From: an uncultured Pseudomonadales bacterium | GTDB taxonomy: Bacteria > Patescibacteriota > Microgenomatia > UBA1400 > PJMF01 | Length of the DNA: 64,000 nucleotides | NCBI GenBank assembly: GCA_964537615.1 | Contig: CAZIBX010000001.1 | Coordinates: forward strand, 1,929 to 65,928 | Direction: 5' to 3' | Shown: piece after piece, positions 5,022 to 27,178 of the stretch | How positions within the stretch are numbered: position 1 is the stretch's first letter | Layout of the letters: each line of letters starts with the position of its first letter | Translations under genes and position numbers: made by a program | Notes under the pieces: model-generated | The model's database searches: none | The model's input: the letters and a program-made list of their open reading frames with translations, nothing else | Told to the model about the DNA's origin: nothing

Positions 5022-5046
5022 TAAGCGTTATACTATCTACACAAAT

Positions 5047-5433
5047 ATGCCACTCTCTTCCAAACTCGCCCAGTTCGGCCAAGGCCTCCAACCACCCACC
5101 GACGCTTTCAGCACCGGCTCAACCAATGATCTGACTCAACCGGTCAATGCTTTTACCAATCTTGAGTACATGGTGTCCAACGTCATTGCTATCGTGACTG
5201 CTCTAGCTTCCCTGATGTTTATTTACTACTTTATCATGGCAGCTATCAGCTGGATTAACTCCGGTGGTGACTCTGGCAAGCTACAAACCGCCAGAAACCA
5301 GATGCTGAACGCAGTTCTGGGTTTGGTGCTACTGGTCGCCAGTTATGCCATCGTAGGTCTGATTGGTACTTTGTTTGGCCTTGACTTGCTCAATCCTGGT
5401 AAAGTGCTCAAAGGTTTAGTTCCCACACCATAA
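5047..5433 (+). CDS. T4SS pilin-like two-TM protein (paralog)
   Basis: Internal Met chosen as start. Hairpin FIMAAISWINSGGDSGKLQTARNQMLNAVLGLVLLVASY. Confidence 0.5.
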   Translation: MPLSSKLAQFGQGLQPPTDAFSTGSTNDLTQPVNAFTNLEYMVSNVIAIVTALASLMFIYYFIMAAISWINSGGDSGKLQTARNQMLNAVLGLVLLVASYAIVGLIGTLFGLDLLNPGKVLKGLVPTP

Positions 5434-5438
5434 CCAAT

Positions 5439-6457: not shown

Positions 6458-6559
6458 TCACTACGCCTTGATCAGACAGCAACTTGACACTCGAGAATAA
6501 AGCACTGTACAATATAAAAGTACTTTGTAGCAATCATTAATAATAAAAAAGGGAGCTGT

Positions 6560-6976
6560 ATGAAACAGTCGCTAAAAACAATCACCGCCTTGGGTGGTGT
6601 GATGGTGGGTACTCTGCTAGCCAGCGTGCCACAAACGATGGCCGCCATTGACGTAGGCACCATCGAAGGTACCAAGGGTATGGCCAATAACTTTGGTAGC
6701 TTTCTTTCCAGCTTGCTGACCATCGTCATGGCTATCGCCGCTCTGGCTGTTTTCATTTACTTGATCTGGGGTGGTATCGAGTGGATTACCAGCGGTGGTG
6801 ACAAAGGCAAAACCGAGACTGCCAGAAACAAGATCACAGCCGCAGTCATCGGTTTGATCGTCTTGGCTGCAGCTTATGCCATCTTGTCCATCGTGCTGCG
6901 ATTCCTGGGCTTCTCCAGCATTACCAACGTGTTTGAGAACGTCAAGGTGATCACGCCAGGTGGCAGTGGCATTTAA
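6560..6976 (+). CDS. T4SS pilin-like two-TM protein (paralog; canonical member)
   Basis: AAGGGAG RBS and a signal peptide. Hairpin IYLIWGGIEWITSGGDKGKTETARNKITAAVIGLIVLAAAY. Confidence 0.6.
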   Translation: MKQSLKTITALGGVMVGTLLASVPQTMAAIDVGTIEGTKGMANNFGSFLSSLLTIVMAIAALAVFIYLIWGGIEWITSGGDKGKTETARNKITAAVIGLIVLAAAYAILSIVLRFLGFSSITNVFENVKVITPGGSGI

Positions 6977-7000
6977 TTAAACTTTAAGATCAAAAGTTTA

Positions 7001-7031
7001 ACACCCTCCCAAAGTTTGGGAGGGTGTTTTG
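7001..7031 (+). terminator. Rho-independent terminator inside the paralog array
   Basis: Perfect GC-rich inverted repeat CACCCTCCC-aaagttt-GGGAGGGTG at 7003–7027, followed by TTTT. Confidence 0.6.
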
Positions 7032-7057
7032 GTAATTCTGATATAATAAGTGGTCAT

Positions 7058-7606
7058 ATGTCCATCAAGCACTTCGTACTCACTCTTGTTCTCGTTTTTG
7101 GTATCAGTTATGGCGTAGTTGGCTCCACTCCAGCCATGGCCGCCGGTACAACTGGCACAGATACCAACGCCGGTCAAGTTCAAACTCAAAACACTGACGG
7201 CTCACTCAACTTGACCACCAGCGTCAACACCGCTACGGCTTCCACTACCCCCAATCCTGATCTAGAGTACTTACCGCCTGGTTTTGCCAAATCTTTTCCT
7301 GATCTTTTGGCCAGTATTTTGACCTTGCTGGTAGCAATTGTAGCTATCTTGGTTTTTGCTTACCTGATTTGGGGTGGACTCAACTGGATTACCAGCGGAG
7401 GCGATAAGGGCAAAACTGAGACCGCCCGCAATAAAATCATGGCTGCCTTGATCGGGCTGATCATCATCGCTTCGTCATACGCCGTGCTTCAGATCGTGTT
7501 GCGGTTTTTGGGCTACAGCTCATTGATCGATGCTTTTAATAAAATCAAACCCATATCTGAACCGGGTCGTAACTTGCGGGTTGAACTGACTGTAGAGAAA
7601 GCATAG
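7058..7606 (+). CDS. T4SS pilin-like two-TM protein (paralog; near-duplicate of 6560..6976 in the anchor)
   Basis: Start placed at the internal ATG at 7058 (MSIKHFVLTLVLVFGISYG… signal peptide). Thr/Asn-rich ectodomain. Hairpin AYLIWGGLNWITSGGDKGKTETARNKIMAALIGLIIIASSY, ~85% identical to the previous paralog anchor. Confidence 0.6.
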   Translation: MSIKHFVLTLVLVFGISYGVVGSTPAMAAGTTGTDTNAGQVQTQNTDGSLNLTTSVNTATASTTPNPDLEYLPPGFAKSFPDLLASILTLLVAIVAILVFAYLIWGGLNWITSGGDKGKTETARNKIMAALIGLIIIASSYAVLQIVLRFLGYSSLIDAFNKIKPISEPGRNLRVELTVEKA

Positions 7607-7615
7607 GATAAAGCC

Positions 7616-8035
7616 ATGTGGCGATTACGCAAGTGGTTAAAACACATCGGTTTAATTTTATCTGTCATAGCATTGTCGATTCCGGGCCGAGTTCTGGCTC
7701 AAACTGTGGAGTGGAACGGAGTTTGTGTCGGAGGAGCTGATCAAGATGTGGCAACCATCCAAGGGCTGGAGTGCTTGATCGCCAATGTTTTTACGGTTTT
7801 TATTACTTTGTTGGGGTTGCTGGGTTTTGTCATGTTCATCATCGCCGGATTCAAGTGGATGACATCTGGTGGTAACAGTAAAGGTATGGAGTCAGCCAGA
7901 GGCGCTATGACTTATGCCGTGCTGGGTCTGGTGATCAGTTTAAGTGCTTTTATCATCATCAACTTAATCGCCGAGTTTACCGGAGTTAATATCATCCGGA
8001 CATTTTCTATTCCCACATCTGATTTGGGTATGTAG
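7616..8035 (+). CDS. T4SS pilin-like two-TM protein (divergent last paralog)
   Basis: Signal peptide. Hairpin FIIAGFKWMTSGGNSKGMESARGAMTYAVLGLVISL. Confidence 0.5.
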   Translation: MWRLRKWLKHIGLILSVIALSIPGRVLAQTVEWNGVCVGGADQDVATIQGLECLIANVFTVFITLLGLLGFVMFIIAGFKWMTSGGNSKGMESARGAMTYAVLGLVISLSAFIIINLIAEFTGVNIIRTFSIPTSDLGM

Positions 8036-8134
8036 TTGACTGCGCTCAATTGATCAAAACCAATGGTCAATAAAGATAGACGGCTTTATTTCATAAATCT
8101 ATTATTTTATCTGACAGGTATAATGTGATCAGTT

Positions 8135-11100
8135 ATGTGCAAAAACCGGATTTTGTCTGGATTGATAAGTTTTTGGCTGATATGTTTACTGGTGGTAGGA
8201 CTAGGGTGGTCATTTTCTAGACCTGCTTATGCAACTTATGGCTTGCCCGAGTTTAAAACTGATTTGACCTGGTTACTGGGCAACGGATCAGTGTCTGGCG
8301 CCCTACTGTTTAACGCTTTCCGCACCAATCCCGACCCCAGCTTCACCAAACATGTTTTAAGTGACGAGCAAATTCAAGATTTGTGTGATGGCGACTGCGG
8401 AGCCAAAAACATCGGTGTTAACATGGCTACCTTTTATAAAGGCGGTGACTATGCCAGAGCCAGAACTCACAAGATGAACTGGTCACTGGAGATCATCAGG
8501 GCCAACACTTCACCTCAAACTGTAGCCGATATCATCAATAAGGAAGGCGTAGGTAACGTCATCATCAGAATCGGGGTAAGTGGTTCGGCCGAAGGTTTTG
8601 AGAGTCCAGCCACTTATGCTAATTTTTTGCGGGCGGTGGCCAGTCAAGTCGGCGGTAAGCCGTTTTATGCTATCGCCGGCCCCAACGAACCAGATTTGGA
8701 AAAATGGCTTGCCCAGGGCTGTTCTGCGCCCGAACCCAGTGCCGCTGAAGCAGTGAGACGGGCGTACTACAGTTGTATCGGCAAACCATTGGCTGATTAC
8801 ATGAACGCTATGATTTCTGCCGGCCTACCCACCAATGTCCGCCTGCTGTCGCCGGCTTTTAACTTAACCAGCTTTACTTTTGCCGACAACCCCGGTCAAC
8901 CCAGTGGTATCCCAAGGGCTATGAGATCAGCCGGAGCCAAGTTTGACAAACTTTATGCTCTCTCTGGCAACATCTACCCCAACGGTGACAGCATGCAAAA
9001 CATCTGGAATCGTAATGTAGCCGGTGTGGTAGCCGAGTTAGGCAAGCCGATGATAATTACCGAAACCGGCCCGTGGAACAACTTGTTGACTAACCCGGGA
9101 GGACTGGATCTGTCCAAATACCCTGATTACAACGCCTCTGACGGGCAAGTTTATATCAACCCCATCTTGGGACTGAACGGCCCGGCCCGCAATATCGCCA
9201 CCATCAGAAACGACTTGATTAACCAAGGATATGAGGCACGCTGTGCTACCCCGGGCTTTAAAATCGAACTGACCCAATCCGGCCAGGACTGGATGGACGA
9301 CTTTGTGGATCAGTACACGCCCGGTAAAGTTTTTGGTGGAGGTCAAAATGCTTATATCAAAGGCCGACCGGCTCCCGGCCCTTATGGTGAAGGTGACCCT
9401 GTCCGCTCGACTTTAACCATCGATTATCGAGATGTAGAAGTACCCCTGTTTCGGGATGTGGGGGGCAAAATGTTTCTGACCTCATCACTGGAAGAATTTT
9501 TCGGGTTCAAAGACATCACGGCCCAAGACAACACTATCTCTGAAGTTAACTCGTCGGCGATCAACTCTCTCTTATCCAATCTGCAACGCTGTCAGGTAGC
9601 GGCCACGCTTTTAATCAAACAGGAAGAAATGTGTCAAAAACTGCAAAGTCCCGATGCTTGTGCGCTTTATCCGCGCCAAATTCAGGGTACTGATCTGAAA
9701 GTCCAGGATCTGCTTAATCGGTACAAACAAGAGGCGGGATCGGATTACAAGTCTGACGCGACTGTCAGACGGGTCTGTGAAAAACTGCAAGCAGACAGTC
9801 AAGCCAACCCAGAATTAAAACAAGGCCTGTCACTTATGCCACTACATCTCGACCGAGCCTACCGCCTGGCTTTTCTGGTGACGGCTATTCAGTTGCGCTA
9901 TCCCACCTGGGATACCATGTTTCACTTTTTTACCCACCCCAACGCCGGGCCGGTAGACGGGCCGGAAAAACCCACCACAGCTATTCTGGTTAATGCGTTC
10001 AAAGTGCCGGATATCACCACCAATAAAGGCACCGCCACCAGTGGCCAAACACCCTGGACTGACCCGGCCATTTTGACCCGCAACTCTCTTTTGCCCAAAA
10101 ATACTGCTACCAAACTGGAAGAAAAAGCTCAAGAAAAACGCGATACGCTGAAGCTGGCGGCCAGCTACTATGATCAAGCCGAGCAGTCTGAAAAAGATGC
10201 AATTTTTTGCGTAGCCAAAGAAGCTCCGACCGGTATTGGTGGCCCAGAGTGTAATGACGAGTTGTCCAAGGCTTTGACCGACATCATCAATGGCCAAGCC
10301 AAACTTAATCTTCCTCTACTGGAATGTCCACAGGATCCGGCTGACTACCAGATAGAAACCAGCTTAGGTATCACTGACCCGGGATCACTGGATCCGCGCA
10401 CCGATCCCAGTAAGGTTTACAGCGTGCCATTTGGAGCTCAACTGTTGGAAAATATCTTCCGGACTGTGCCTGTGGGAACCCGATACTCTACAGCTGATTC
10501 AACCCATCAAATAGAACCACTTGGCGAAAGCGACCCGATGTTTGCGGAAACTTGGCGCACTGGCGATCCAGAAGGAGATAATCCTCTACCAGGAGTGAGA
10601 GATTGGGGACTGAAAAGCATGTTTCATGTAGTGACACAGATGCAGGACAGGGGTTTTCCTTACTGCTGTAAAGATCAGCGCATCGTCAAACATTATCTGG
10701 TTTATCCAGAAGGATACGACCTGCAAACCGTCGAGGATACTCTGGCCGGTTCTTTTTTCAGCCAAACTCAACTGACGGCTTTACTGGAATCAGAAAAAAA
10801 TTATGATCGGGTCAAAGTTGAGAACGACTCGATTGGGTTTGAGGGTGGACAGTTGAGTAAAACGTTTGCAGATAGCCAGAATACTTCTCCCAACAATAAT
10901 GTTCAGGGCGATCCGGCTTGCGCCAAAGAAGAACGCCTGCCAAATGGTGATACCAGGACTTATTATGCCCTACCCTGCGATCGGACTTTTGAGTTTAAAA
11001 TTGGTCAAAAAAATGAGGCCTTGTCGGCGGGCATACTGGGAGGTAAGTTGGGCTTCTGGCTAAGAGAAGTCCAAAAAACCCTCAACTCTTCTGCCAGTGT

Positions 11101-11599
11101 GGCCCGAGCTTACCTGGATACCTGCGAAACCACCGAGCAGTTTTTGACTGGTCGCTGTGGCGATCAAACCATCACCGCTCCCAAGCGGGAAGAGGACGAC
11201 TGTACCGGTCTCGGGTGTCCGGGAGCACCCGCTCCCTCTGGCCCGGCTCCAACTGGTGTTTGTGATACCAACCAGCCCAACTTGGTGACTGATTTAAGTG
11301 TTGACCAGAACCGCAACTGGTGGCTGGATGTGCGTTGCCCGCAGTGTCAAAGTACCTGGGGAGATATCAGTTTGGACGTAACTACCAACGTGGGTAACTT
11401 CCACTGGGGGCCCAACAACTTGCCCCAGGGGGGGATGTTACGTTTTCCTTGCACTTCATGCAATCCGTCCAGTGTACAAATTTTGCCTTCTGCCGTATCT
11501 GGCGGGCAGTTTTGTATCACTATGAAGCTGACTTCCAACGCCGCCGGCAATCAGTGTCAGCAAGATAGAGAGCGATTTTTATGTGCGCCGGTACCGTAG
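8135..11599 (+). CDS. Large secreted protein with an N-terminal GH-A clan (GH5-like) glycoside-hydrolase domain and a Cys-rich C-terminal region
   Basis: Signal peptide. The sequence AIAGPNEPDLEKW matches the GH5 acid/base NEP signature. About 130 aa later, MIITETGPWNN matches the GH5 nucleophile Glu signature (x-T-E-x-G). The last ~150 aa contain >14 Cys. A TATAAT lies 11 nt upstream of the ATG. Confidence 0.45.
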   Translation: MCKNRILSGLISFWLICLLVVGLGWSFSRPAYATYGLPEFKTDLTWLLGNGSVSGALLFNAFRTNPDPSFTKHVLSDEQIQDLCDGDCGAKNIGVNMATFYKGGDYARARTHKMNWSLEIIRANTSPQTVADIINKEGVGNVIIRIGVSGSAEGFESPATYANFLRAVASQVGGKPFYAIAGPNEPDLEKWLAQGCSAPEPSAAEAVRRAYYSCIGKPLADYMNAMISAGLPTNVRLLSPAFNLTSFTFADNPGQPSGIPRAMRSAGAKFDKLYALSGNIYPNGDSMQNIWNRNVAGVVAELGKPMIITETGPWNNLLTNPGGLDLSKYPDYNASDGQVYINPILGLNGPARNIATIRNDLINQGYEARCATPGFKIELTQSGQDWMDDFVDQYTPGKVFGGGQNAYIKGRPAPGPYGEGDPVRSTLTIDYRDVEVPLFRDVGGKMFLTSSLEEFFGFKDITAQDNTISEVNSSAINSLLSNLQRCQVAATLLIKQEEMCQKLQSPDACALYPRQIQGTDLKVQDLLNRYKQEAGSDYKSDATVRRVCEKLQADSQANPELKQGLSLMPLHLDRAYRLAFLVTAIQLRYPTWDTMFHFFTHPNAGPVDGPEKPTTAILVNAFKVPDITTNKGTATSGQTPWTDPAILTRNSLLPKNTATKLEEKAQEKRDTLKLAASYYDQAEQSEKDAIFCVAKEAPTGIGGPECNDELSKALTDIINGQAKLNLPLLECPQDPADYQIETSLGITDPGSLDPRTDPSKVYSVPFGAQLLENIFRTVPVGTRYSTADSTHQIEPLGESDPMFAETWRTGDPEGDNPLPGVRDWGLKSMFHVVTQMQDRGFPYCCKDQRIVKHYLVYPEGYDLQTVEDTLAGSFFSQTQLTALLESEKNYDRVKVENDSIGFEGGQLSKTFADSQNTSPNNNVQGDPACAKEERLPNGDTRTYYALPCDRTFEFKIGQKNEALSAGILGGKLGFWLREVQKTLNSSASVARAYLDTCETTEQFLTGRCGDQTITAPKREEDDCTGLGCPGAPAPSGPAPTGVCDTNQPNLVTDLSVDQNRNWWLDVRCPQCQSTWGDISLDVTTNVGNFHWGPNNLPQGGMLRFPCTSCNPSSVQILPSAVSGGQFCITMKLTSNAAGNQCQQDRERFLCAPVP

Positions 11600-12052: not shown

Positions 12053-12835
12053 CTACTTACCCTGCCAAACAGTTTTGGGCAATTTTTTGATGACTGACTT
12101 GCTGGGCTTCCAGACACGACTGGCGCCGGCTTGTAACAACTCCGCGACTGTCATAAAAGTATCTGCCCCGACACTACTTGACCTCAATCGATCAGTAACA
12201 CTATCGATACCACTAAGTAAATCAGTGCCGGCAGGCCCGGTCAGGGTCAGGCCACTGGCTTTAATCAGTAGAAAAGCCAGTTCAGACAGAGAAGGTCGCT
12301 GGTCTAGAGTTAAAACTACACTGGCAAACTCCACCGGCTGATCACAGAGAGCGATGCTGGAAGTATTTTTATACTCGTCTTCATAACCGATGTATAACTG
12401 GGCTAGTGAATCCAGGTCTTTCACCCCGACAAAAATCAGTAAGTCCGCCTCAAAGCCGGCATAAGCAAACTCCACGGCTTTGATGTCCAGGGGTTTGGCT
12501 GATGACTTGGGTTTAATCGTCAGGTAAAACCGTTTGTTGGTCTCCCCGATGTGATAACTGATCTTGTCCACCTGTGACTCGACATAGGGAAAACTGATCA
12601 ACAAGTTGCGATTGCCCACTTCTGTTTCCAGATGAGCCAAGCCCTTGGTGATGGGTGAGGTGATTTTTTCTGGACAAACCAACTGGATGGATTTGCCATT
12701 TTCCGTCAAGCTAGTAGCCAGGCCGGCGGCAGTGGCCAGAGCGTCAATTGACGGGCTGGGAGGTAAAATCACTATGACTTGCTGGGACTGATTGATCAGG
12801 GTTGCTGCCGATGTCACAGCAGAAGTGTCAGTCAT
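12053..12835 (-). CDS. Hypothetical cytoplasmic protein, possibly a degenerate DHH/DHHA1 (NrnA-like) fold
   Basis: The N-terminal VIVILPPSPSIDALATAAGLATSL resembles DHH motif I/II (…SPDGDAIGS…) but has lost the Asp residues. A GPAG sits where DHHA1 proteins carry GGGH. This is a weak, sequence-only call. Confidence 0.3.
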   Translation of the reverse strand: MTDTSAVTSAATLINQSQQVIVILPPSPSIDALATAAGLATSLTENGKSIQLVCPEKITSPITKGLAHLETEVGNRNLLISFPYVESQVDKISYHIGETNKRFYLTIKPKSSAKPLDIKAVEFAYAGFEADLLIFVGVKDLDSLAQLYIGYEDEYKNTSSIALCDQPVEFASVVLTLDQRPSLSELAFLLIKASGLTLTGPAGTDLLSGIDSVTDRLRSSSVGADTFMTVAELLQAGASRVWKPSKSVIKKLPKTVWQGK

Positions 12836-12934: not shown

Positions 12935-14761
12935 ATGCGTGCGCGTTTCATGTTCACTAGCGTCGGTGTAGTGGTGACGGCCATAATTTTTGGCTGGCTG
13001 GTGGCCGGTGCAGTTCACGCTCAAGCTCCTACTCCCACTCCAGAACGAGAAATTGCCCCCAATCCTTTTGGCTATCAAATTTTTAAAGATGAAAAAGAAC
13101 AGTATTTAGAGGCAGTCAAAGACTGCTCTACACCATCACTTGAGTGTCTAGTACACAATGTAGCGCGTTTTACAGCCATCGAGTGGGTTTATGAAATCTC
13201 TGGCCCGCAGAGTAGTTGTCAACCAGGTGAGACCGGCCCGGAATGTCTGGAAAGCACCGAAAACTCTATCCCCGCTGATTCCTCCGGTTCTTCCCTACCC
13301 AGTTCCGTCCCTGTAGCCCAAGGCGCCATTGGCGGTATCGGTAAACTGATTTCTGCCATGTACCAACACCCCGTAGCCAACACCGGTACTTATGTGGCTG
13401 ACGTGTTAAACTCGGCTCATATCGCCACTCCGGCTTACGCTCAAGGCCTGGGCTTTGCTGCTCTTGATCCCATCCTGGTGCTGTGGAAAACTTTCCGCAA
13501 TATCGCTTATCTGTTTTTTGTCATAATTTTTGTCATCATCGGTTTTATGATTATGTTTCGCCAGAAGATGGGTAACGCGGCTATCACGGCCCAACAAGCC
13601 ATTCCCAATATCTTAACCGCCCTGATTTTTGTGACTTTTTCCTACGCTATCGCTGGACTTTTGATCGATATGATGTATGTGTTGATGATCCTGATTATCG
13701 GGGTATTTGGTGAAACCTTCCAGGAGGCCGGTCAAAACGTCAACATCCTGACTTTTAATATTCTCAACTTGGTGGGCGTGATGTTCCGTGGAGTGGCAAG
13801 AGTGGGCAATAACGTCGATATTATTTCCAGCTTGCTGGAAGGCCTGGGCGTGTCTGGGTTTCTTAATACCTTGACTAGTTTGTTGGGTGGTTTGACTTTG
13901 ACCCTGGTTTTGGCTATCGCCGTGCTGATCGGGGCCGTCAAGTTGTTTTTTGAACTACTACGCTCATACGCGACTGTGGTGCTATCTGTGGTCACGGCCC
14001 CCATTGTGCTGATGATGGGCGCTATACCTGGCAAAAACGTCTTCATGCCGTGGATTAAAACCATCGCCGGCAACCTTCTGCCCTTCCCCACAGTTTTGTT
14101 GGTGCTAGTCATGTACTACAAGTTTACTGATGGTACTATCCGTGAAGGTGGCGGTTTCATGCCGCCGTTTTTGCTCGGTGGTGGCCAGGGCGGAACGATT
14201 GTGGCTATCATGGGTTTGGCTATCATTTTGGCTCTGCCGGAAATTGTCAAAAAAGTGCGGGACAGCGTGGCACCCAAGGGTGGGATTGGGGAGTTTATAA
14301 CTGATGCTGGCGTGAAAGCTGCCAAAAATGCATGGAGTGGTAAAGTACCAGGTGGATTTAATGCGAAAAATATGTTTACTAGAACTGCCAAGACTCCACT
14401 AGCTGTGGCTGGCGGTTATCTTGGATACAAATATGCTGACAACAAAGCAAATGAACTTGGCCTTGAGGGTAGGGCGCGTAATATCGCACGAGCCGGTGGT
14501 ATACTGGGTGGCGCATCAATTGCTCCAAATATGTTTGGAATAGTAAGAAGAAGAGGTGGTGAGTTTGTGAGCCAGTTGGGTCAAGCCCAAGCTACTAAGT
14601 TCGTTCAAGACATAGAAACGGCCTCTAAACGACGACGCGGGCAAGCGGCCAGCCAGACCAACACAGATATTGCGGCAACTGAAACCACAGTAACTGCGGC
14701 GCCTACAGCGACCACAACGCGTGGTTCAAGTGGTGCCGATCCATCGACTCAAGGGTTATAA
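12935..14761 (+). CDS. VirB6/TrbL-like polytopic membrane protein of the T4SS-like locus
   Basis: Signal peptide plus a ~150-aa periplasmic region. Six or more TM helices span aa ~190–420. A Gly/Lys-rich cytoplasmic tail follows. Size and topology are typical of VirB6/TrbL/ConG, and the T4SS context supports the call. Confidence 0.5.
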   Translation: MRARFMFTSVGVVVTAIIFGWLVAGAVHAQAPTPTPEREIAPNPFGYQIFKDEKEQYLEAVKDCSTPSLECLVHNVARFTAIEWVYEISGPQSSCQPGETGPECLESTENSIPADSSGSSLPSSVPVAQGAIGGIGKLISAMYQHPVANTGTYVADVLNSAHIATPAYAQGLGFAALDPILVLWKTFRNIAYLFFVIIFVIIGFMIMFRQKMGNAAITAQQAIPNILTALIFVTFSYAIAGLLIDMMYVLMILIIGVFGETFQEAGQNVNILTFNILNLVGVMFRGVARVGNNVDIISSLLEGLGVSGFLNTLTSLLGGLTLTLVLAIAVLIGAVKLFFELLRSYATVVLSVVTAPIVLMMGAIPGKNVFMPWIKTIAGNLLPFPTVLLVLVMYYKFTDGTIREGGGFMPPFLLGGGQGGTIVAIMGLAIILALPEIVKKVRDSVAPKGGIGEFITDAGVKAAKNAWSGKVPGGFNAKNMFTRTAKTPLAVAGGYLGYKYADNKANELGLEGRARNIARAGGILGGASIAPNMFGIVRRRGGEFVSQLGQAQATKFVQDIETASKRRRGQAASQTNTDIAATETTVTAAPTATTTRGSSGADPSTQGL

Positions 14762-14777
14762 AAATCTAAACTTCACG

Positions 14778-17750
14778 TCACCTTTGATATTTAAAGACAC
14801 CTTCTACTTGTTGTGCTATAAGTTCGGTCATTTCTTGAGCATTCTCAACTGTTCCAAAGGATGCGTCCAAGGCAACGGTAATTGCTTTTACAGCATCTTC
14901 GCCGATTGCAGTAGTCAAGTAACTTAGTTTTTCTTTAACTTCTTTTAATTTAACTTTATCAACAGCTAACAAGGTTAAACATCTGGAAAAAACATGGACT
15001 ATTGTAATTCTTCTAAAAACATTTTCTGCTCTAAATCTACCGGCAGAAACCTCAAGACCCCAAACGGGAAAAAATGATGCCGCATACTTTACTTCATTCT
15101 GTTCTATTGGCAACTTATTGACATCGAGCACACTGTCACCTGGAGCATGGCTAAACATTTCATACAATCTAGTTATATTTTTGCCGTTGTTGTACCATTT
15201 TTCTATTCCATTGCTAGGTAAGACCAAGTCCCAAGGAATATATTCGTACATTATTCTGCCATCAGTATTAACAAAATCAGCCGCCGTAATAGGTGGTGGA
15301 ATGTAGCCGGGTTGCTCTGGCCATCTCATAACTGGTGTTTCGTTTGCTAATTGGGTTGGGTTGGCACTATAACGTGAAGTATCTGGATCTCTGAATATCA
15401 TATATTGAAGAGGCATGGGAATAACTTGATAATTTCCTTGTGGATTCTGGTGTAGTAACACCAATGGTAGGTTTGCCAAAAACTCAAAATCTGTTAAATC
15501 TTTTTCTCCTAGTGCTGTTAGTATTTTATTTCTTGCAGATGAGGTGTGTGATGCATCAGGCAAGTTGGCTAATCTAAAGCCTATACGTTCCACAATACCA
15601 TCGGGTTCTTTCATCCTTCTCATGTCATATCTTCCAATGTTATCCAATACATAATGTTTTCCATCGGCAGCGGGTGGTAGGTTTGGGTCATACTTTCTAA
15701 ATAAACAGATTGATTCCAAAATTGACGCTGGAGTTGTGCCCCCAATAACACCCTGACTTACATAGTCGAGCCATTGGTTGGCCTTAAACAGGCTATCATT
15801 TGTAAATGGACTTTTTCCAGGAATCATCATTGATTGATGTAATAGCATTGAATGAAAAAGCCAGGCCTGTCGTACTTCTAGAGGAGAAATGTCGTATCCG
15901 TAAAGAAGCATGGCTGTTCTGGAAATTACTGTATGTAAGTTGTTTTTGTAGCTGCTGATGTGTAGTGATTTATAGTAGTTGTCCAACAAAATTATTAGTT
16001 GCTGCTCTTCTTGGTTGGGAGTTCTACCTTCAGCTATAATTTTGTCTTTCAACATTTTGTGTAACTTATTTTTATATAAATCATCTAAAATCCGCATTAC
16101 CTCACCATGGGTAGTGGGAATAAAATCAGGCAAATTAACAAAGCCATCGGGAGATGAAAAATCTCTAATAGAATCTGCTCTAGATGGTAAGTCTCTTACG
16201 TATGCTTTTTCGTTATCGGGTTGAAGGTCGGGGTCTGGATCATGACCATTGCGTGGATGAATAGCTATAGAAAAATCTTGCTCTGTAATAAAGATTTCTG
16301 GAGTTTGTTGTGGAAACTGTCTCGTAGAATCGGTCTTCTGGTCACCAAAACCAAAAATCATGGGTTCTAGTTTCTGTTCTGCAAAAAATACTCTACGCCG
16401 GAAAGACAGTGTGCGCTGAAAAGCTGCATTGTCCAATTTTATTGCATCTCTTTTAAGAGATAGAACTGGATTTTGGCTCGCCTTTTTTTCTATTAAATTC
16501 AATCTGCCAAAACCTCTTTCGCCCGCGATAACAATATCCCATCCACTGGACTGTGTTGCGGCACTATCTTGAAAATAAAAGTTTGAATTTTTTAAGTCCA
16601 GTTCATCGTCTTGCATTCTATGTTCTATGGCTCTTTTTGTTTCCACATAGTCACACAAAAGAACTCTGCTTTCCAAAGAAAAATATTCTGTATCTTGGCC
16701 AAAAGCTCTTATTCTATCAAGCAAACCATAAAGTTTGCTCAGTCTTTCGGCCAATCTATCAGTCATAACTTCAAGCGTTACAGGTCCCAGCTGTTTAATC
16801 CTATCCAGTTCATCGTCTATCTCTTGTCTTAATTGCGTCTCTGTTTCTAGATCGACAGCAGGAGGGCTAGCTTCTGGCTGTGGGGTATAAGGCTGGTCAG
16901 TTGGTTCTTCCAACTCAATTTCTTCATCTACTGAAACTAATGGACTCGATGTTTGTGTGGCTTCGTCCTGTCTTACCTTTTCTATCGCTGCATCTACCAA
17001 CGCGTGAAGATCATCAAAAAAAGTATATAAATCGGGGTTGGATGCACTGTTAACCCTTGCTTCCTGATCATTGATGCGTTGGTGAAATCTCTCGAGGGCG
17101 GAAATAGTTGTTTCGGCAGTTGATTGTCGGTCTTCAAATCTTTTCAGCACCCTAGCTATTCCCTCTAGAATAAGTTTTGAAAAAGAATCCTTATCAAAAG
17201 ATTGTTCTCTAGTAGATCCACTGGCTTCGACTGTTAATGGGTCTTTTTCCTCCAACTTATCAAGCTCGACCATAATAACTTCCACCAACAATAACTGAAG
17301 TAAGCCTAAGCGTTCATTGTCGGCTTCCTGAACTCCTTGGTCCTCTGTCTGTTCAACACCCTCTGTCTCATCTTCGTCCATACCAAATAAATCTTTATGA
17401 GCCATGATCTCTGTCATGGCGCTTTGCGCCTGAAGATTACCTATGAAATCTACAATTTTATCGAATAATCCTCGGAGTTTTTGAGTTCTCTTTTCTTTTA
17501 TAGCAATCTGTAAAGCTGCGTGTGTGTCAAAATACAATTGCCTAATGTCATTATTTTTTGGTTGTTTTAAAAAACTGGATATTTCAGTTAATTGTTCTTG
17601 GTCAACAACTTCTTGTTTTAAAATATCAGCAACAACTTCAGAAATTTCATCCATGTCAACTCTGGTTTTACCAATCTCAACCAGTTGACCTGCCGTTACT
17701 TTTTTACTCAACAAATCTTTGACGGATAATCCTTTACTGCTTTCGGCCAT
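14778..17750 (-). CDS. Large (990 aa) soluble hypothetical protein, AT-richer than neighbours, on the opposite strand inside the T4SS-like locus
   Basis: Long clean ORF with no TM segments and no recognisable catalytic motif. It has acidic/Gln-rich N-terminal low-complexity segments. Its nucleotide composition is visibly AT-richer than the flanking genes. Confidence 0.6.
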   Translation of the reverse strand: MAESSKGLSVKDLLSKKVTAGQLVEIGKTRVDMDEISEVVADILKQEVVDQEQLTEISSFLKQPKNNDIRQLYFDTHAALQIAIKEKRTQKLRGLFDKIVDFIGNLQAQSAMTEIMAHKDLFGMDEDETEGVEQTEDQGVQEADNERLGLLQLLLVEVIMVELDKLEEKDPLTVEASGSTREQSFDKDSFSKLILEGIARVLKRFEDRQSTAETTISALERFHQRINDQEARVNSASNPDLYTFFDDLHALVDAAIEKVRQDEATQTSSPLVSVDEEIELEEPTDQPYTPQPEASPPAVDLETETQLRQEIDDELDRIKQLGPVTLEVMTDRLAERLSKLYGLLDRIRAFGQDTEYFSLESRVLLCDYVETKRAIEHRMQDDELDLKNSNFYFQDSAATQSSGWDIVIAGERGFGRLNLIEKKASQNPVLSLKRDAIKLDNAAFQRTLSFRRRVFFAEQKLEPMIFGFGDQKTDSTRQFPQQTPEIFITEQDFSIAIHPRNGHDPDPDLQPDNEKAYVRDLPSRADSIRDFSSPDGFVNLPDFIPTTHGEVMRILDDLYKNKLHKMLKDKIIAEGRTPNQEEQQLIILLDNYYKSLHISSYKNNLHTVISRTAMLLYGYDISPLEVRQAWLFHSMLLHQSMMIPGKSPFTNDSLFKANQWLDYVSQGVIGGTTPASILESICLFRKYDPNLPPAADGKHYVLDNIGRYDMRRMKEPDGIVERIGFRLANLPDASHTSSARNKILTALGEKDLTDFEFLANLPLVLLHQNPQGNYQVIPMPLQYMIFRDPDTSRYSANPTQLANETPVMRWPEQPGYIPPPITAADFVNTDGRIMYEYIPWDLVLPSNGIEKWYNNGKNITRLYEMFSHAPGDSVLDVNKLPIEQNEVKYAASFFPVWGLEVSAGRFRAENVFRRITIVHVFSRCLTLLAVDKVKLKEVKEKLSYLTTAIGEDAVKAITVALDASFGTVENAQEMTELIAQQVEGVFKYQR

Positions 17751-17858
17751 ACCACTAATTATAAATCAACAACATTTAAATGTCTTATTCAACCTTGGGT
17801 CTTCAACTTACTTAAAAAAATTAGGTCAACTCAATCTTTTCAAGCTATAATCTAACCC

Positions 17859-21924: not shown

Positions 21925-22926
21925 ATGCCCACTCCAGATCACCAAACCACCATTCCCAACCCCAACCGTTCCAAATATAGACTGATAATTGTTCTGGTGA
22001 TTGTGGTTATAGTCATAGTTATGCTGAAAATTTTTACTCCAGCCACACCGATTACCAAGGGGCCATTGACTCAACAAAACTTCGACGGTAGTAGCAGTAG
22101 TTTTAAACTCAAGTTTGTGGGTAACCAACCGGAGTTTCCTGGTGACTTGCCCATCGGTCACGTGGTGGTCGAAAGCGTCAGTCAAGCCGAGTTGCTCGCC
22201 CCACTCATCAATCAATATCAGCTCCAGCCCGAGCCGGGCGACCCTCTGGTCTGGACCGGCCCTGACTATGTTTTGGTCAAAGATGAGGGCTCCGGCATGT
22301 ACACTTTGGCCACTCAACTCCTAGCAGAGCGTAGTTCGACCATAAATGAAACTGAAATCATAACCCAAGCTGAAAACCTGGCCCAAAAACTGTTTCCTGA
22401 CACCCATCTCAAAGTTGTTCCATCAGACACCAGATACCTGGCTGGCAGTGAAGAACAAAAAGAAGTCGGGCTGGCCCAAGCCGAGGTGATTGAGTTGGTT
22501 CTCGCCCCCACCATGAGCAATTATCCTGTGATGATCAAAAACAACAGTCAAAGTTTGGTACAGATGACATTTGATAGTAGCCAAAAATTAATTAAACTCA
22601 ACTTTCTGCCAGAAGTGGCTGGATTGAGTTACTCACCTGGTATGGGTCAAGAGTTCAAGGTCATTAAAATCGATCAAGCGGTCGCCAATACCAACCGCGG
22701 CGACGGGGCGATTATCAGCGCTGATAGTCGGCAGGTTACAAGACTTAATCTCAACTCCAAAATAACGGGAAATCTTAATCGAGTGGAAATCGAGTATAGA
22801 AGCAATGATGCTCAACAGCTTTTGCCCTACTATCGTTTCTCTGGGTTATTACAATTGGATGGCTTGGAGTTTACAGCCGACATTATCACCCCAGCCATTG
22901 ATCTTGACACCATACCTGACTCATAA
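21925..22926 (+). CDS. N-terminally anchored extracytoplasmic protein, candidate VirB8-like component
   Basis: Single N-terminal TM (LIIVLVIVVIVIVMLKIF) followed by a ~290-aa extracytoplasmic domain. The position between the hydrolase and VirB3/VirB4-like genes matches Gram-positive T4SS VirB8-like proteins, but no motif supports it. Confidence 0.3.
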   Translation: MPTPDHQTTIPNPNRSKYRLIIVLVIVVIVIVMLKIFTPATPITKGPLTQQNFDGSSSSFKLKFVGNQPEFPGDLPIGHVVVESVSQAELLAPLINQYQLQPEPGDPLVWTGPDYVLVKDEGSGMYTLATQLLAERSSTINETEIITQAENLAQKLFPDTHLKVVPSDTRYLAGSEEQKEVGLAQAEVIELVLAPTMSNYPVMIKNNSQSLVQMTFDSSQKLIKLNFLPEVAGLSYSPGMGQEFKVIKIDQAVANTNRGDGAIISADSRQVTRLNLNSKITGNLNRVEIEYRSNDAQQLLPYYRFSGLLQLDGLEFTADIITPAIDLDTIPDS

Positions 22927-22941
22927 TCACTCTCACTGCCC

Positions 22942-24192
22942 ATGAAAGACCACCCCATCCCCCAAGACGTCACCGGTTATAAGTTTCATATCGTAGGTAA
23001 CATGACACTCAAGCAGTTTGGTTTGATTGTTTTTGGCGTGATTGTGGCCTTTATTATTTATCAACTGAAGTTACCGGCTTTAATCGGCTGGCCGTTTATC
23101 GTGATTTTTGCCGGCGGTGGTCTGCTGGCAGCGTTTATTCCGATTGAAGAAAGGCCACTGGATCACTGGATTTTAACTTTTATCAAAACACTCTACCGAC
23201 CCACCCAATTTTTCTGGCGCCGGGAACCCCATGTGCCAGCTGTGTTTGACTATGTGGCCAACAATAATCAAAACACCCCCCCTCCGACCGATTTGGCCCC
23301 GGCCAAAAGAGCACGGATTCATGACTATCTCAACTCACTCCATGACCCAGGAGATAATTCGGAAACAGATGAACACAGCCCCCAACTGGCCCAGATTTTG
23401 GCTAACTTTCACTCATCTCCTGATCCAGTTAATCAGACAGCGGATACTGCCCCTCCACCTAGTATGACGGTCAAAGTCAGGGCTCTGGCCCCCAATCCGG
23501 AAGACCAAACCAACCCGGAGAAAATGCCTGTTAGTGCCACCACCACCATCGTGGACTTTTCAGCTGCGACACAAACGACATCAGAACCGTTGATTGCTCC
23601 AGAACCACTAATGACTCCAGAGCTAACAATAACCCCAATACCACCAGCCAACCCAGAGCCAGAAGTCGACCGGACCATTTCCCAAGCCGCCAGCACAGTC
23701 CAACTACCCACTCAAACTATCACAGCCATTGATCACTCCGATCAAATCCAGAATGTGAACGAAAGCCCAATCCTACAACCCCAGCTGGAATCTACGCCAG
23801 TCACTCCGCCTGACCCAACTCCACCCAAGCCAGACAACACCAACACCATTTCCAGCATCACGCCAGAATCACTAGCTGAAAACACCCAAGTCGCTCAACA
23901 ACCAGACAACCTCCCCTTTCCTTCTGCGCCCAGCCAACCCAATGTAGTGGTGGGTATGGTGGTTAATCAAAAGCAAGAATTACTGCCAGGAGCTATAATA
24001 GAAGTGGCTCTAAACAGTGGCCAAGTCGTCAGGGTAGTACGCACCAATGCTTTGGGCCAATTCTTTGTGACTACACCATTACCAAATGGTAGTTATGTCC
24101 TGCGGGCAGAAGTGGACGGGCTACAGTTTGCCCCCCAAAGTCTTGAGGTAATTGGTCAAACAATTGCTCCAATTTTATTCACCGCCAGTTGA
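22942..24192 (+). CDS. VirB3/PrgI-like two-TM protein with a long Pro/Thr-rich extension
   Basis: N-terminal TM hairpin (FGLIVFGVIVAFIIYQLKLPALIGWPFIVIFAGGGLLAAFIPI) followed by WILTFIKTLYRPTQFF, reminiscent of PrgI/VirB3-family proteins found directly upstream of VirB4. A ~250-aa PT-rich low-complexity region is followed by a small C-terminal domain. Confidence 0.45.
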   Translation: MKDHPIPQDVTGYKFHIVGNMTLKQFGLIVFGVIVAFIIYQLKLPALIGWPFIVIFAGGGLLAAFIPIEERPLDHWILTFIKTLYRPTQFFWRREPHVPAVFDYVANNNQNTPPPTDLAPAKRARIHDYLNSLHDPGDNSETDEHSPQLAQILANFHSSPDPVNQTADTAPPPSMTVKVRALAPNPEDQTNPEKMPVSATTTIVDFSAATQTTSEPLIAPEPLMTPELTITPIPPANPEPEVDRTISQAASTVQLPTQTITAIDHSDQIQNVNESPILQPQLESTPVTPPDPTPPKPDNTNTISSITPESLAENTQVAQQPDNLPFPSAPSQPNVVVGMVVNQKQELLPGAIIEVALNSGQVVRVVRTNALGQFFVTTPLPNGSYVLRAEVDGLQFAPQSLEVIGQTIAPILFTAS

Positions 24193-24277
24193 AACTAGCC
24201 AGAATACAGTTTGTCGCCCGCACCAGTTAATAAGTAGCGATAACCGGTTGAAGCAGAAGGTTGAATCCTGTATTCTT

Positions 24278-25135
24278 ATGGTTGTTATGCCTGCCAGCAA
24301 CGTTTTGCACTCGACTACCCAGCATTTTTTGGATATTTATGACATCACCAACGACGTGGTGATGATTAAAAACGGCACGGTGTCTTTGATTTTGACCGTT
24401 GATGCTATGAACTTTGGGCTACTGGCCGATGAAGAACAAGACGGGGTGATGTATGCGTATGCCGGACTACTTAACTCTCTCAACTACCCCATCCAAATCC
24501 TGGTCCAGTCTCAAACCAAAGATGTGACCAATTATCTGCGACTACTCCAACAACAAGAAGAACAAACCCCCAATCCACTGATGCGCAAAAGAATCAGAAC
24601 ATACCGAGAGTTTGTGGCTAACTTAATCCACGAACGCAACGTATTGGATAAAAGATTTTATGTAGTTATCCCAGCTTCACCTCTAGAATTGGGGTTTTTG
24701 TCAGCCGGAGGCCTGGTGCCTGGTAGTAAACCATTTGATATCAGCTCTGTAGAAAAAAGCGTGGTGCTGGAAAAAGCCCTCAACATTCTTGAACCTCGCC
24801 GCGATCATCTCATTTCTCAATTTGCCCGCATCGGTCTTTTTTCTGAACAACTCAAAACACAGGATATCATTCAGTTGTTTTATCTCAACTACAACCCAGA
24901 AGCATCAGAGGGTCAAAAAATTACTGACAGCAAAAATTACACCTCGCCCCTGGTTCATGCCGCTTTAAGAGAAAAAATCGTGCAGGGTAGTCAACCAGAT
25001 GTGACCCCACCTGTACCTCCCGCTCCCACTCCACCCCTTACCCCACCAATCGAACCAATCCAGACCACCACACCAACCACACCAACTCAACCTAATCCTA
25101 TAACGCCAACCAACCCAGTCGCCAGCCCCACTTAA
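24278..25135 (+). CDS. T4SS-associated protein, possibly a detached VirB4 N-terminal segment
   Basis: Start moved to the internal ATG at 24278 to remove the 41-nt overlap. The segment …TTQHFLDIYDITNDVVMIKNGTVSLILTVDAMNFGLLADEEQDGVMYAYAGLLNSLNYPIQILVQS… resembles the extreme N-terminus of VirB4/TrbE family ATPases. A PT-rich tail follows. Confidence 0.35.
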   Translation: MVVMPASNVLHSTTQHFLDIYDITNDVVMIKNGTVSLILTVDAMNFGLLADEEQDGVMYAYAGLLNSLNYPIQILVQSQTKDVTNYLRLLQQQEEQTPNPLMRKRIRTYREFVANLIHERNVLDKRFYVVIPASPLELGFLSAGGLVPGSKPFDISSVEKSVVLEKALNILEPRRDHLISQFARIGLFSEQLKTQDIIQLFYLNYNPEASEGQKITDSKNYTSPLVHAALREKIVQGSQPDVTPPVPPAPTPPLTPPIEPIQTTTPTTPTQPNPITPTNPVASPT

Positions 25136-25138
25136 ACC

Positions 25139-27178
25139 ATGCCCAACTCACTACTTGCTTCACTACCGTTTTTTAGCAAAAAACCCTCTCCCACCGATCA
25201 GGACAAGGCCAAAGAGCTGGAGTTGGAAAAACTTAAAGAGTTTTCGCGGGGGCTGGTCACTATTCAGGACATCATTGCGCCAGAAGCTATCGAGGTAGAC
25301 TTCACCTTTCAAAAAATTAACTCTACTTATACCAGGACTTTATTTGTGGCCGGCTACCCCAGGTCGGTTCCTGCCAACTGGTTGTCACCCCTGATTAACT
25401 TCCCCCACCAAATCTCGGTCGGGATGTTTATTTATCCTGTTGATTCCACCGAAGTCCTAGATAACTTAAAACGCAAAATTACCGAGATGGAGGCAGAAAT
25501 TCAATCAGATCTACGCGCAGGTAAAATCAGCAACATCAACACGGAAATCAAACTGGAAGATGCCCGCTTCATCAGAGAAGATTTGGCCAAAGGCAGCGAG
25601 CGATTTTTCCAGTTCGGGCTATACGTCACCATCACCGCCACCAGCAAAGAAGAGTTGGACAGAGTAACCAAAGCCATCCAGTCGTCGCTAGGATCACTGC
25701 TGATCGTGTCTAAAAAAGCTACCCTGCAGATGGACGAGGGCTTCAAAACTACTCTGCCCATGGGGGTAGATAAACTGATTATCACCCGCAACATGGACAC
25801 CACCAGTTTGGCCACCACCTTTCCCTTCACTTCGTCTGAACTGGCCATGGACACCGGTATCGTTTATGGCATCAACGAACACAACGACTCGCTGGTGATT
25901 TTTGACCGCTTCAAGATGGAAAATGCCAACATGGTAATTTTTGCCAAATCGGGTGCTGGCAAGTCTTATACCGTCAAACTGGAGGTTTTGCGTCAACTGA
26001 TGTTTGGCTGTGAAATTATCGTCATGGATCCGGAACACGAGTATGAGGATTTGTGTAAAGCTGTGGGGGGCGAATACATCAACTTTACTTTTGGTTCGAC
26101 CGCCAAAATCAACCCCTTTGACCTATCCGCTCTATATGAAGAGGGTGAAAACGAACTGGGTCAAAAAATTATTTCCATCCACGGCTTGCTCAAAGTTATG
26201 TTGGGAGCCATGACTCCCCAGCAAGATGCCATTCTCGACCGAGCTTTGGTGGCTGCCTATAAAGCCAAGGGTATCACGCCAGATCCAGCTACCCAAACCA
26301 ACGAACCACCCTTGATGGAAGATGTGTATAAAGCTTTAATCGGTATGGAAAACAAAGAAGCCGACGACATCGCGGCTCGGCTGGAAAAGTTCATCACCGG
26401 CTCTTTCCGGGGAATTTTTGACCAAAAATCCAACATCGATATTAAAAACCAACTGACTGTTTTTTCCGTCAAAGAAATGGAAGAGGAAATGCGACCGATC
26501 GCCATGTATGTCATCCTGGACTTCATCTGGACTCGGGTGAAGAAAGATCTTAAAAAACGCATACTGGTGATTGATGAAGCCTGGTATTTTATGAAACACG
26601 CCGACTCGGCATCGTTTATTTACTCTATGGTCAAAAGGGCCCGTAAATACTACCTGGGCATCACCACCATTACTCAAGATGTAGAGGATTTTTTGCGCAA
26701 CGATTATGGTAAAGCCATCGTCACCAACGCCTCGATTCAATTTTTGATGAAACAGTCCTCTGCCTCAATTCCGGTTTTGGCCGAAACTTTCTTTTTATCT
26801 CAAGGAGAGCGCCAGTTGTTGGTGACTTCAGAAGTCGGTGAAGGTGTATTTTTTGCCGGTCAAAATCACGTGGCGATTAAAGTAGTAGCCAGCGACGAAG
26901 AACACTCGCTCATTACTACCAATCCAGAGGAATTGATGAAGCGCAAAGCAGATTTGGCTCAACAAACCAGTGTCAATCCCGCTCCCGCCAATCTGTCGTT
27001 TGCCCAAATTGAGTCCGGAATTACAACTCCCCCACCGGTTAATTTACCAGAACCACCAACCAATCCCAACCCAACTCCCACCATAATACAGAACACCCCG
27101 TCCCCAACTACTGTTCCGCAAGCTTACCAAGCCCCTACCATTGCTGACTACACCCCACCCAAACCTGGTACTTTTTAA
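25139..27178 (+). CDS. virB4: VirB4-like T4SS ATPase
   Basis: Carries the VirB4/CagE/TrbE motif TRTLFVAGYPRSVPANWLSPL. Walker A is FAKSGAGKSYTVK and Walker B-like is ILVIDEAWYFM. Size is 679 aa with a PT-rich C-terminal tail. Confidence 0.8.
   Translation: MPNSLLASLPFFSKKPSPTDQDKAKELELEKLKEFSRGLVTIQDIIAPEAIEVDFTFQKINSTYTRTLFVAGYPRSVPANWLSPLINFPHQISVGMFIYPVDSTEVLDNLKRKITEMEAEIQSDLRAGKISNINTEIKLEDARFIREDLAKGSERFFQFGLYVTITATSKEELDRVTKAIQSSLGSLLIVSKKATLQMDEGFKTTLPMGVDKLIITRNMDTTSLATTFPFTSSELAMDTGIVYGINEHNDSLVIFDRFKMENANMVIFAKSGAGKSYTVKLEVLRQLMFGCEIIVMDPEHEYEDLCKAVGGEYINFTFGSTAKINPFDLSALYEEGENELGQKIISIHGLLKVMLGAMTPQQDAILDRALVAAYKAKGITPDPATQTNEPPLMEDVYKALIGMENKEADDIAARLEKFITGSFRGIFDQKSNIDIKNQLTVFSVKEMEEEMRPIAMYVILDFIWTRVKKDLKKRILVIDEAWYFMKHADSASFIYSMVKRARKYYLGITTITQDVEDFLRNDYGKAIVTNASIQFLMKQSSASIPVLAETFFLSQGERQLLVTSEVGEGVFFAGQNHVAIKVVASDEEHSLITTNPEELMKRKADLAQQTSVNPAPANLSFAQIESGITTPPPVNLPEPPTNPNPTPTIIQNTPSPTTVPQAYQAPTIADYTPPKPGTF

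Follow-up and report, generated by a model that had tools for sequence, protein, structure and literature searches.

We show here that a chromosomal type IV secretion system (T4SS) locus in a 64,000-nt stretch of DNA (hereafter the window, to which all gene means and open reading frame (ORF) scans refer) contains a fixed slot, the content of which is exchanged between related loci together with the adjoining end of a membrane protein gene. In the window the slot is occupied by an uninterrupted frame on the minus strand, running from an ATG at 17750 to a stop at 14778, which encodes a soluble protein of 990 aa, the slot protein. Its C-terminal domain founds a new protein family. Slot genes and the C-terminal tails of the neighbouring 608-aa membrane protein co-vary in type, and both share the same low GC content at third codon positions. 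A preliminary description of this DNA had recognized the frame, regarded it as an ORFan and suggested that it is horizontally acquired cargo, possibly an effector or a substitute for a missing relaxase.

The slot is constant in position and variable in content. All 14 related loci have an ORF of 632-1344 aa that lacks hydrophobic segments and is encoded on the opposite strand, converging on the homologue of the 608-aa gene. Where the slot holds a relative of the window's gene, one of its flanks is made up of pilins, a large secreted protein, a gene like that of the 260-aa protein of the window, and the membrane protein; the other comprises the M23 hydrolase, a gene like that of the 333-aa protein, PrgI, TrsD and VirB4. 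Six loci (L010-L015) were sampled via homologues of the 608-aa protein and are hence unbiased as to the slot gene. All six carry a large slot ORF (632-1241 aa) devoid of hydrophobic segments. Members of the family found in the window (family A) occupy two of them (L012, hmmsearch 4e-197; L013, 7e-52), L010 and L015 share another common family (family B, 31% identity over 119 aa), and the slot proteins L011_878 and L014_1004 match no other slot gene. At least four sequence-unrelated families occupy the slot. Even the closest relative, L010, has an unrelated, AT-rich gene of 632 aa in this place (hhalign of the family profile against L010_632, probability 0.4%), with flanking T4SS proteins that are 57-90% identical to those of the window and flanking DNA that is about 70-75% identical. 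The same holds for all three closest locus pairs (flanks 66-82% identical), whose slot genes lack detectable similarity: membrane protein and large secreted protein are 69% and 73% identical between window and L010, 77% and 82% between L013 and L015, and 68% and 66% between L011 and L014. L013 carries the subfamily A*, L015 family B.

On the other hand, ten or more distant loci have a family member in this slot and on this strand, and all members with a retrieved context (L002, L003, L004, L005/6, L007, L008, L009, L012, L013) are found in the T4SS slot. Homologous slot genes occur at membrane-protein core identities as low as 35-57%; the cores of window and L003, for example, are 50% identical and their slot proteins 40%. 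Slot similarity is therefore non-monotonic with flank similarity, a pattern that divergence in place cannot by itself produce and that requires exchange between lineages or sorting of ancient alleles. Family members are AT-richer than their neighbours in every locus (GC 0.36-0.43 and GC3, the GC content at third codon positions, 0.25-0.38, versus mostly 0.44-0.55 in the neighbours). Since the family keeps both slot and composition in distant loci, it is not a one-off recent acquisition, and a recent horizontal transfer of this kind into the genome at hand is ruled out by synteny. Thus, of the proposed horizontally acquired cargo the exchange is borne out by L010 and two other close pairs, the recent single event is not. 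Comparison of syntenic relatives gave an equally mixed answer: the slot is always filled, in some loci by a family member and in others by an unrelated gene, the closest relative included. Meaningful direct or inverted repeats of the att or insertion sequence type were not found flanking the slot gene of the window, so that the exchange probably proceeded by recombination within the flanks, which are conserved. Patescibacteria are documented to be naturally competent (PMC12857230).

The replaced segment does not end with the slot gene. DNA identity between window and L010 breaks off at 14295, where some 155 codons of the 608-aa gene are still to come, and returns at 17949, 90 nt into the M23 gene; equivalent breakpoints are present in L013/L015 and in L011/L014. 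Past a conserved LPEIVKK, the C-terminal 130-190 residues of the membrane protein fall into discrete types. The tails of all family-A loci have a GYKYA..KA.ELGLEG-type motif in common, those of both family-B loci the motif RRLF.(P/A)ED..KLL. Composition-corrected clustering of 116 tails into Louvain communities (single linkage had chained all of them via G/A-rich segments) yielded a minimum of 12 types with more than one member. Wherever the slot gene is known (13 of 13 loci), tail community and slot family agree, down to the subfamilies A and A*. In family A, the identities of tails and of slot C-terminal domains are correlated (r=0.75, Mantel p~0.0008), and the partial correlation given the core is 0.71 (p~0.002); between core and slot r is 0.35. 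Unrelated slot genes in close relatives thus co-vary with the adjoining tail, as polymorphic cargo modules with a cognate adaptor end do, a comparison that concerns the way of working and not the family.

Tail and slot are also matched in composition. Mean GC3 is 0.445 in the core of the membrane protein gene, 0.318 in the tail and 0.312 in the slot gene (0.538, 0.361 and 0.307 in the window), and in each of the 13 loci the tail has a lower value than the core (Wilcoxon p=0.0002). The encoded charges are complementary: tails carry +5 to +14, slot proteins -49 to +1. AT-richness is consequently a conserved property of the whole module of slot occupant and tail, not of one gene, and this explains the low-GC anomaly first seen in the slot gene. 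The compositional contrast had been taken as a sign of acquisition; the slot gene does deviate, but its AT-richness is a conserved trait of slot content and adjoining tail.

Within the window, the slot gene has by a wide margin the lowest GC3 of all ORFs of at least 300 aa (0.307, next lowest 0.392; gene mean 0.468, standard deviation 0.068), and its overall GC is 0.388 compared to a gene mean of 0.461. GC1 is normal (0.511), and the anomaly hence sits at synonymous sites. Two short ORFs have a still lower GC3 of 0.27 (30365-30700, 111 aa; 37103-37600, 165 aa), and the most AT-rich kb of the window is found at 37-38 kb (GC 0.362). The slot gene converges with the 608-aa gene, their stop codons being 16 bp apart, and diverges from the 1353-aa M23 gene. 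On the minus strand, a TATAAT at 17763-17758 ends 7 nt before the slot-gene ATG and is preceded at 17-nt spacing by a -35-like AAGACA; an obvious Shine-Dalgarno sequence was not seen upstream of the ATG. This arrangement suggests a leaderless or very short-leader transcript. Promoter and terminator scans returned matches at chance level.

The description of the protein as soluble and acidic holds. The hydropathy of the slot protein peaks at a KD19 of 1.64 within a charged helix and gives no convincing transmembrane segment; a signal peptide is lacking, as are Walker A, HxH and HExxH motifs. The N-terminal 300 aa have a net charge of -31 and contain 11.7% E, 9.3% D and 7.3% Q, in line with the acidic, Gln-rich N-terminus reported before. 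A role as coupling protein (VirD4/TcpA) or other T4SS ATPase was rejected, as Walker A, a match to P-loop families and transmembrane segments are all missing.

The slot protein is not an ORFan. An exhaustive phmmer search against 1.84 billion representatives identified 16 related cluster representatives, 14 of them at E<1e-30; word-index homology searches with the protein and with alignment A1 had recovered only the protein itself, probably swamped by low-complexity N-terminal words. The family alignments cover the protein from roughly residue 300 onwards to its C-terminal end; residues 1-256 are touched by none. Indeed, the N-terminal region is unalignable even with the closest family member L004, the C-terminal domain of which is 51% identical. 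The family diverges faster than its neighbours (25-40% versus 42-50% identity), and a 13-sequence alignment retains 23 invariant positions in the C-terminal domain, many of them polar. With this alignment as input, AlphaFold2 (AF2) modelled residues 300-990 at a predicted local distance difference test (pLDDT) score of 83.2 and a predicted template-modelling score (pTM) of 0.83, as a domain that is helical for the most part with a few small beta elements; the full protein modelled from the single sequence was unusable (pLDDT 36.5).

Foldseek searches with the C-domain model against PDB and BFVD gave a best hit at E=0.39 with a template-modelling score of about 0.1. The HUH or tyrosine-relaxase folds that the preliminary description had proposed to look for were therefore not found, nothing falling below that E-value, and neither did Foldseek against PDB return a housekeeping enzyme, a match that would speak against an effector. 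Pfam, NCBIfam, PHROGs and PADLOC contained no match to the C-domain family, also at relaxed E-values with all 13 members, and a sequence-profile search of PDB with the family was likewise negative. The sole Pfam match of the slot protein, CTD12 (PF20279) at residues 33-103, scores 21.2 bits, under the cutoff of 25, and is limited to one of the 13 family members, in the non-conserved N-terminus. With CTD12 below threshold and no match in PADLOC, the protein cannot be placed among the ABC-3C conflict systems. Thus, the C-terminal domain of the slot protein defines a new family with a confidently predicted domain and without sequence or Foldseek relatives in the libraries searched.

The locus around the slot is a chromosomal T4SS beside dnaA with a pilin array, PrgI/VirB3, TrsD, VirB4 and an M23 hydrolase (Table 1). 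The VirB4 with adjoining TrsD-like and PrgI/VirB3-like proteins, the PF18895 array, the proximity of dnaA/dnaN and the lack of a relaxase identify it as an MPF-FATA-like T4SS of Patescibacteria. Neither a relaxase nor a type IV coupling protein was found among the window ORFs scanned, and the absence of a relaxase, pointed out before, is confirmed. According to published descriptions, Patescibacteria T4SS are MPF-FATA-related, relaxase-less systems near dnaA with pilin arrays (PMC12102498), and their chromosomal loci have the same VirB4, TrsD, PrgI/VirB3, VirB2-like pilins and M23 hydrolase (Quinonero-Coronel et al. 2025, PMC12102498; Wang et al. 2023, PMC10633639), the same position beside dnaA/dnaN, and no nearby coupling protein (PMC12102498). 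S. epibionticum differs in having no separate slot gene and instead VirB6-like proteins of about 1000 aa.

Table 1. Coordinates of the slot gene, its parts and the neighbouring T4SS genes in the window.
Feature	Position	Strand	Properties
Upstream T4SS sub-operon: T4SS_pilin (PF18895) array, then 1154-aa protein	1507..11599	+	
260-aa soluble protein	12053..12835	-	independently called; no Pfam match; not variable
608-aa polytopic membrane protein gene	12935..14761	+	putative VirB6 analogue
Core of 608-aa protein	12935..14251	+	signal peptide, ~160-aa external domain, 6-7 transmembrane segments (hydropathy)
Tail-encoding 3' part of 608-aa gene	14252..14761	+	~170 aa, basic (+11), low GC3
Slot gene	14778..17750	-	990-aa soluble acidic protein; ORF/translation, GC3, no transmembrane segment, family membership
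Conserved C-terminal domain of slot protein, residues ~300-990 (~680 aa)	14778..16853	-	alignments A1, A3; AF2 model
Lineage-specific N-terminal region of slot protein, residues 1-~300	16854..17750	-	helical, net charge -31
Divergent intergenic spacer, slot gene/M23 gene	17751..17858		108 bp; unalignable with closest relative (L010)
M23 protein, 1353 aa	17859..21920	+	3 transmembrane segments; C-terminal PF01551 (1e-18); VirB1-like role; first gene of downstream sub-operon
333-aa protein, single transmembrane segment	first of four genes in 21925..27178	+	
PrgI/VirB3-like protein	22942-24192	+	PF12666
TrsD-like protein	24152-25135	+	NF041427
VirB4 ATPase	25139-27178	+	PF19044/PF12846

The slot gene had been placed between a VirB6-like and a hydrolase gene. 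The position is correct, its neighbours being the polytopic 608-aa protein and the M23 protein, but VirB6 identity finds no backing in Pfam or NCBIfam. "VirB6-like" is a label from position and topology: the 608-aa protein, with its 6-7 hydrophobic segments and basic tail, is polytopic and matches no VirB6/TrbL profile (PF04610 or PrgH). The published survey calls VirB6 homologues "scarce" in Microgenomatia (PMC12102498). At least 742 homologues of the 608-aa protein exist under source names of Woesebacteria or Pacebacteria, which assigns these homologues to the Microgenomates group. Contrary to what had been stated, the slot gene is also not the only minus-strand gene of the locus: the gene of the 260-aa protein is encoded on this strand as well, and it is kept in all relatives, always on the strand of the slot gene, with 38-56% identity across loci. 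Its homologues in L013 and L015 have a faint match to DHH phosphoesterases. It takes the place that in S. epibionticum belongs to the VirB8-like/NTF2-like gene, although a signal peptide and transmembrane segments are lacking.

Upstream, the array of small genes spans 1507-8035, with seven ORFs matching PF18895 between 1507 and 7606, and the 1154-aa protein has a single, signal-anchor-like N-terminal hydrophobic segment. Between the stops of its gene and the convergent 260-aa gene lie about 450 bp (11600-12052) without an ORF of at least 100 aa; Rfam matches were absent from the whole window. On the other side of the slot, conservation of the M23 protein is far lower over its first ~1000 residues than over the C-terminal ~340 (76% identity to L010). 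Directly after VirB4 follow dnaA (27311), dnaN (29054) and yidC, and farther on genes for LeuRS, a RadA-like protein, Rho, Obg and pseudopilins. The cumulative GC-skew minimum is located near 36 kb, about 8 kb past dnaA/dnaN and not at dnaA, and gene orientation switches at 38 kb. A second M23/LysM peptidase is encoded at 53405-54535. Two or three pseudopilin genes (N_methyl, T2SSG motifs) in 57997-63995 adjoin a minus-strand ORF of 1466 aa that reaches the window end and weakly matches Peptidase_S74.

Some relatives carry additional genes near the slot. The Pacebacteria relative L012 has a TacA1/GNAT toxin-antitoxin pair, AAA_14/DUF4143 ATPase genes and a helix-turn-helix gene around it (6993-9944 and 15324-17687). 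Riboflavin kinase, an EamA transporter and an unknown gene of 400-470 aa lie between slot and M23 genes in others (L005 81-2580; L007 1934-4629; L008 6753-9834); the window has none of the three. The unknown 400-470-aa proteins form a family of their own (30-36% identity), with GC3 of 0.28-0.40, and their genes are AT-richer than most neighbours in L007 and L008. L011 (14368-15627, 419 aa) and L014 (12841-14049, 402 aa) have a second opposite-strand gene upstream of the slot gene and in the same orientation. These two are 39% identical, and since the slot genes next to them are non-homologous, the operon is partly conserved while the slot gene was replaced.

How can a conserved secretion locus accommodate such a replaceable gene? 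We tentatively favour the reading that the polymorphic membrane-protein tail and the convergent gene of a large soluble protein, together about 14252-17858, form an exchangeable module of a cognate docking tail and a T4SS substrate or partner, with the 990-aa gene as the current occupant of the slot. The AT-rich tail-plus-slot module is swapped from lineage to lineage, most probably through recombination of the conserved flanks. The acidic, soluble slot protein would attach to the matching tail on the cytoplasmic side of the translocon and then either be passed to the VirB4-powered channel as a dedicated substrate (effector) or be kept as a substrate-like partner. The tail may thereby act as recognition element in place of the missing coupling protein. 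Within the slot protein, the 680-aa C-domain might serve as the docking or translocation part and the lineage-specific acidic N-terminus as the variable functional part. That the slot protein is a T4SS-translocated substrate is the leading hypothesis, and its position in the locus, solubility, variability and co-varying tail make it a candidate. Physical binding, the cytoplasmic location of the tail and secretion are what we infer from sequence.

Several observations weigh against this reading. Tail and slot are adjacent, with 16 bp between the stops, and pure linkage in a non-recombining block would give the same co-variation and composition. The side of the membrane on which the tail lies is left undecided by the count of transmembrane segments, six or seven placing it outside or inside; the positive-inside rule alone favours the cytoplasm. 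One slot gene of similar size is present in every locus, which would equally fit an obligatory subunit of the machine. An immunity-like gene was not found beside the slot gene, where the gaps measure only 16 bp and 108 bp, nor was a recognisable catalytic domain in the slot protein, and the N-terminus resembles an acidic helical region rather than an enzyme. The flavokinase, EamA and toxin-antitoxin genes beside the slot in some loci indicate that the region also tolerates unrelated insertions. Because binding, topology and export are deduced and adjacency alone could yield co-variation, we hold this reading at somewhat less than an even chance.

Other systems are known in which polymorphic cargo goes with a structural secretion gene that has a variable end. 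In VgrG/PAAR cargo of the type VI secretion system, contact-dependent inhibition, Rhs and LXG of the type VII secretion system, the C-terminal end of a structural gene varies with adjacent exchanged and often AT-rich cargo. The slot may be likened to these, as here, too, unrelated genes occupy one slot in close relatives. It differs in belonging to another secretion system and in having a polytopic membrane protein as partner; moreover, the slot protein has no immunity gene or recognisable toxin domain, and its gene is convergent with, not co-transcribed with, that of its partner. A second comparison concerns T4SS effectors. The XVIPCD substrates of Xanthomonas (X-Tfe) and the BID substrates of Bartonella combine a variable N-terminal with a conserved C-terminal part. 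The slot protein would resemble these and CagA in being soluble, built of a variable N- and a conserved C-terminal part, and encoded within or beside a T4SS locus, and CagA also in being a large protein without sequence or fold relatives. However, recognition of such substrates is the task of a VirD4-type coupling protein, and the slot locus has none; the conserved domain measures about 680 aa in the slot protein compared to about 100-140 aa in XVIPCD and BID substrates. Sequence and Foldseek searches revealed no similarity of the slot protein to XVIPCD, BID or CagA, and features of X-Tfe/XVIPCD or BID effectors were missing: no Pfam domain, no coupling protein in the window and no small adjacent ORF.

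The tail itself invites a third comparison. Alleles of the VirB6-family protein TraG of F-like systems pair with specific partners, TraS/Eex. With TraG and the extended VirB6 proteins of Rickettsiales the 608-aa protein may have in common that a VirB6-family membrane protein has a variable hydrophilic C-terminal region paired with a specific partner, although its VirB6 homology is putative, there being no profile match. Here the partner is large, soluble and encoded in cis, in contrast to the small recipient membrane exclusion protein of the TraG-TraS/Eex pairs.

Among the other explanations, one also makes use of the tail as docking site. The slot protein could stay in the cytoplasm as a component of the secretion machine, corresponding to the large hydrophilic C-terminal domains of "extended" VirB6 proteins but encoded separately, and dock on the tail to act as gate, scaffold or regulator of the channel. 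Co-evolution with other fast-evolving parts such as pilins would then account for its variability. There is exactly one such gene per locus, in the same place and of similar size, and tail and slot co-vary as this explanation would predict. The VirB6-like proteins SEML1_0011 and 0013 of S. epibionticum, about 1000-1090 aa long and with C-terminal helical (ARM-like) domains, are essential, and the T4SS literature knows extended VirB6 proteins that have large hydrophilic domains (PMC12857230). Non-homologous replacement would be unusual for a subunit where the others are 66-90% identical, and with at least four unrelated families in the slot we consider this explanation rather unlikely.

We regard it as improbable that the slot serves as a hotspot where recombination brings in accessory genes (defence, anti-defence or conflict) unrelated to secretion, with a weakly constrained, disordered tail hitch-hiking along. 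As is typical of accessory islands, the slot content is AT-rich, on the opposite strand and different between close relatives, and the toxin-antitoxin, AAA_14/DUF4143 and helix-turn-helix genes of L012, the flavokinase and EamA insertions elsewhere and the weak, sub-threshold match to an ABC-3C domain would all fit such a hotspot. Against this, the slot is never empty, holding in 14 of 14 loci one large soluble ORF directly convergent with the membrane-protein gene, and every family member with known context sits in the T4SS slot. PADLOC gave no matches, and the ABC-3C domain match concerns a single member of 13, below cutoff and in the non-conserved N-terminus. Furthermore, the tail types are discrete and kept within type across deep divergence (GYKYA..KA.ELGLEG), indicating that the tail is constrained, which argues against hitch-hiking.

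A third possibility, overlapping with the others, is that the slot gene diverges extremely fast in place without exchange and that the unrelated families descend from one ancestral gene. The very fast turnover of the N-terminus, unalignable at 51% C-domain identity, and the fast evolution of the family relative to its neighbours speak for it. The cores of window and L010 are about 70% identical with no similarity in the slot, while cores of 50% identity in window and L003 go along with 40% slot identity, and L013 and L015 differ in family despite flanks of 77-82% identity; we strongly doubt this explanation. Finally, a novel relaxase or DNA-processing enzyme standing in for the missing relaxase, as the preliminary description had suggested from the relaxase-less locus, is highly improbable even for a cytoplasmic protein with invariant Tyr, His, Asp and Glu, given that HUH, HxH and Walker motifs are absent, that Pfam, NCBIfam and PHROGs returned no relaxase, Rep or recombinase, that the slot protein shows none of the marks of conjugative relaxases (MOB, HUH/Rep_trans/PD-(D/E)xK), that PDB gave no sequence or Foldseek match in spite of its many relaxase structures, that unrelated replacement in close relatives ill fits a core DNA-processing role, and that strongly acidic proteins are poor DNA binders.

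The T4SS locus as such is already known. The slot family, its cassette behaviour and the co-varying, compositionally matched tail are not described in the portions available of PMC12102498, PMC10633639 and PMC12857230. The same sources report that the T4SS of S. epibionticum, the one species amenable to genetics, is essential for epibiotic growth and that its substrates are unknown (PMC10633639; PMC12857230), and they leave substrate choice without coupling protein or relaxase as an unsolved question for Patescibacteria T4SS (PMC10633639, PMC12102498, PMC12857230). Going beyond the exchangeable module, one may speculate, in a form that is attractive although unlikely to hold in all its parts, that T4SS substrates of Microgenomates-group Patescibacteria are selected in the absence of a coupling protein: the VirB6-like tail, polymorphic as it is, would directly recruit one large, cognate, convergently encoded effector, the modules (at least 12 tail types among 116 homologues) would be exchanged between lineages as host-specificity cassettes, and the C-domain would be a new fold for docking and translocation. 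The module described here thus offers a candidate substrate and a candidate recognition element for the essential and functionally opaque T4SS of Patescibacteria.

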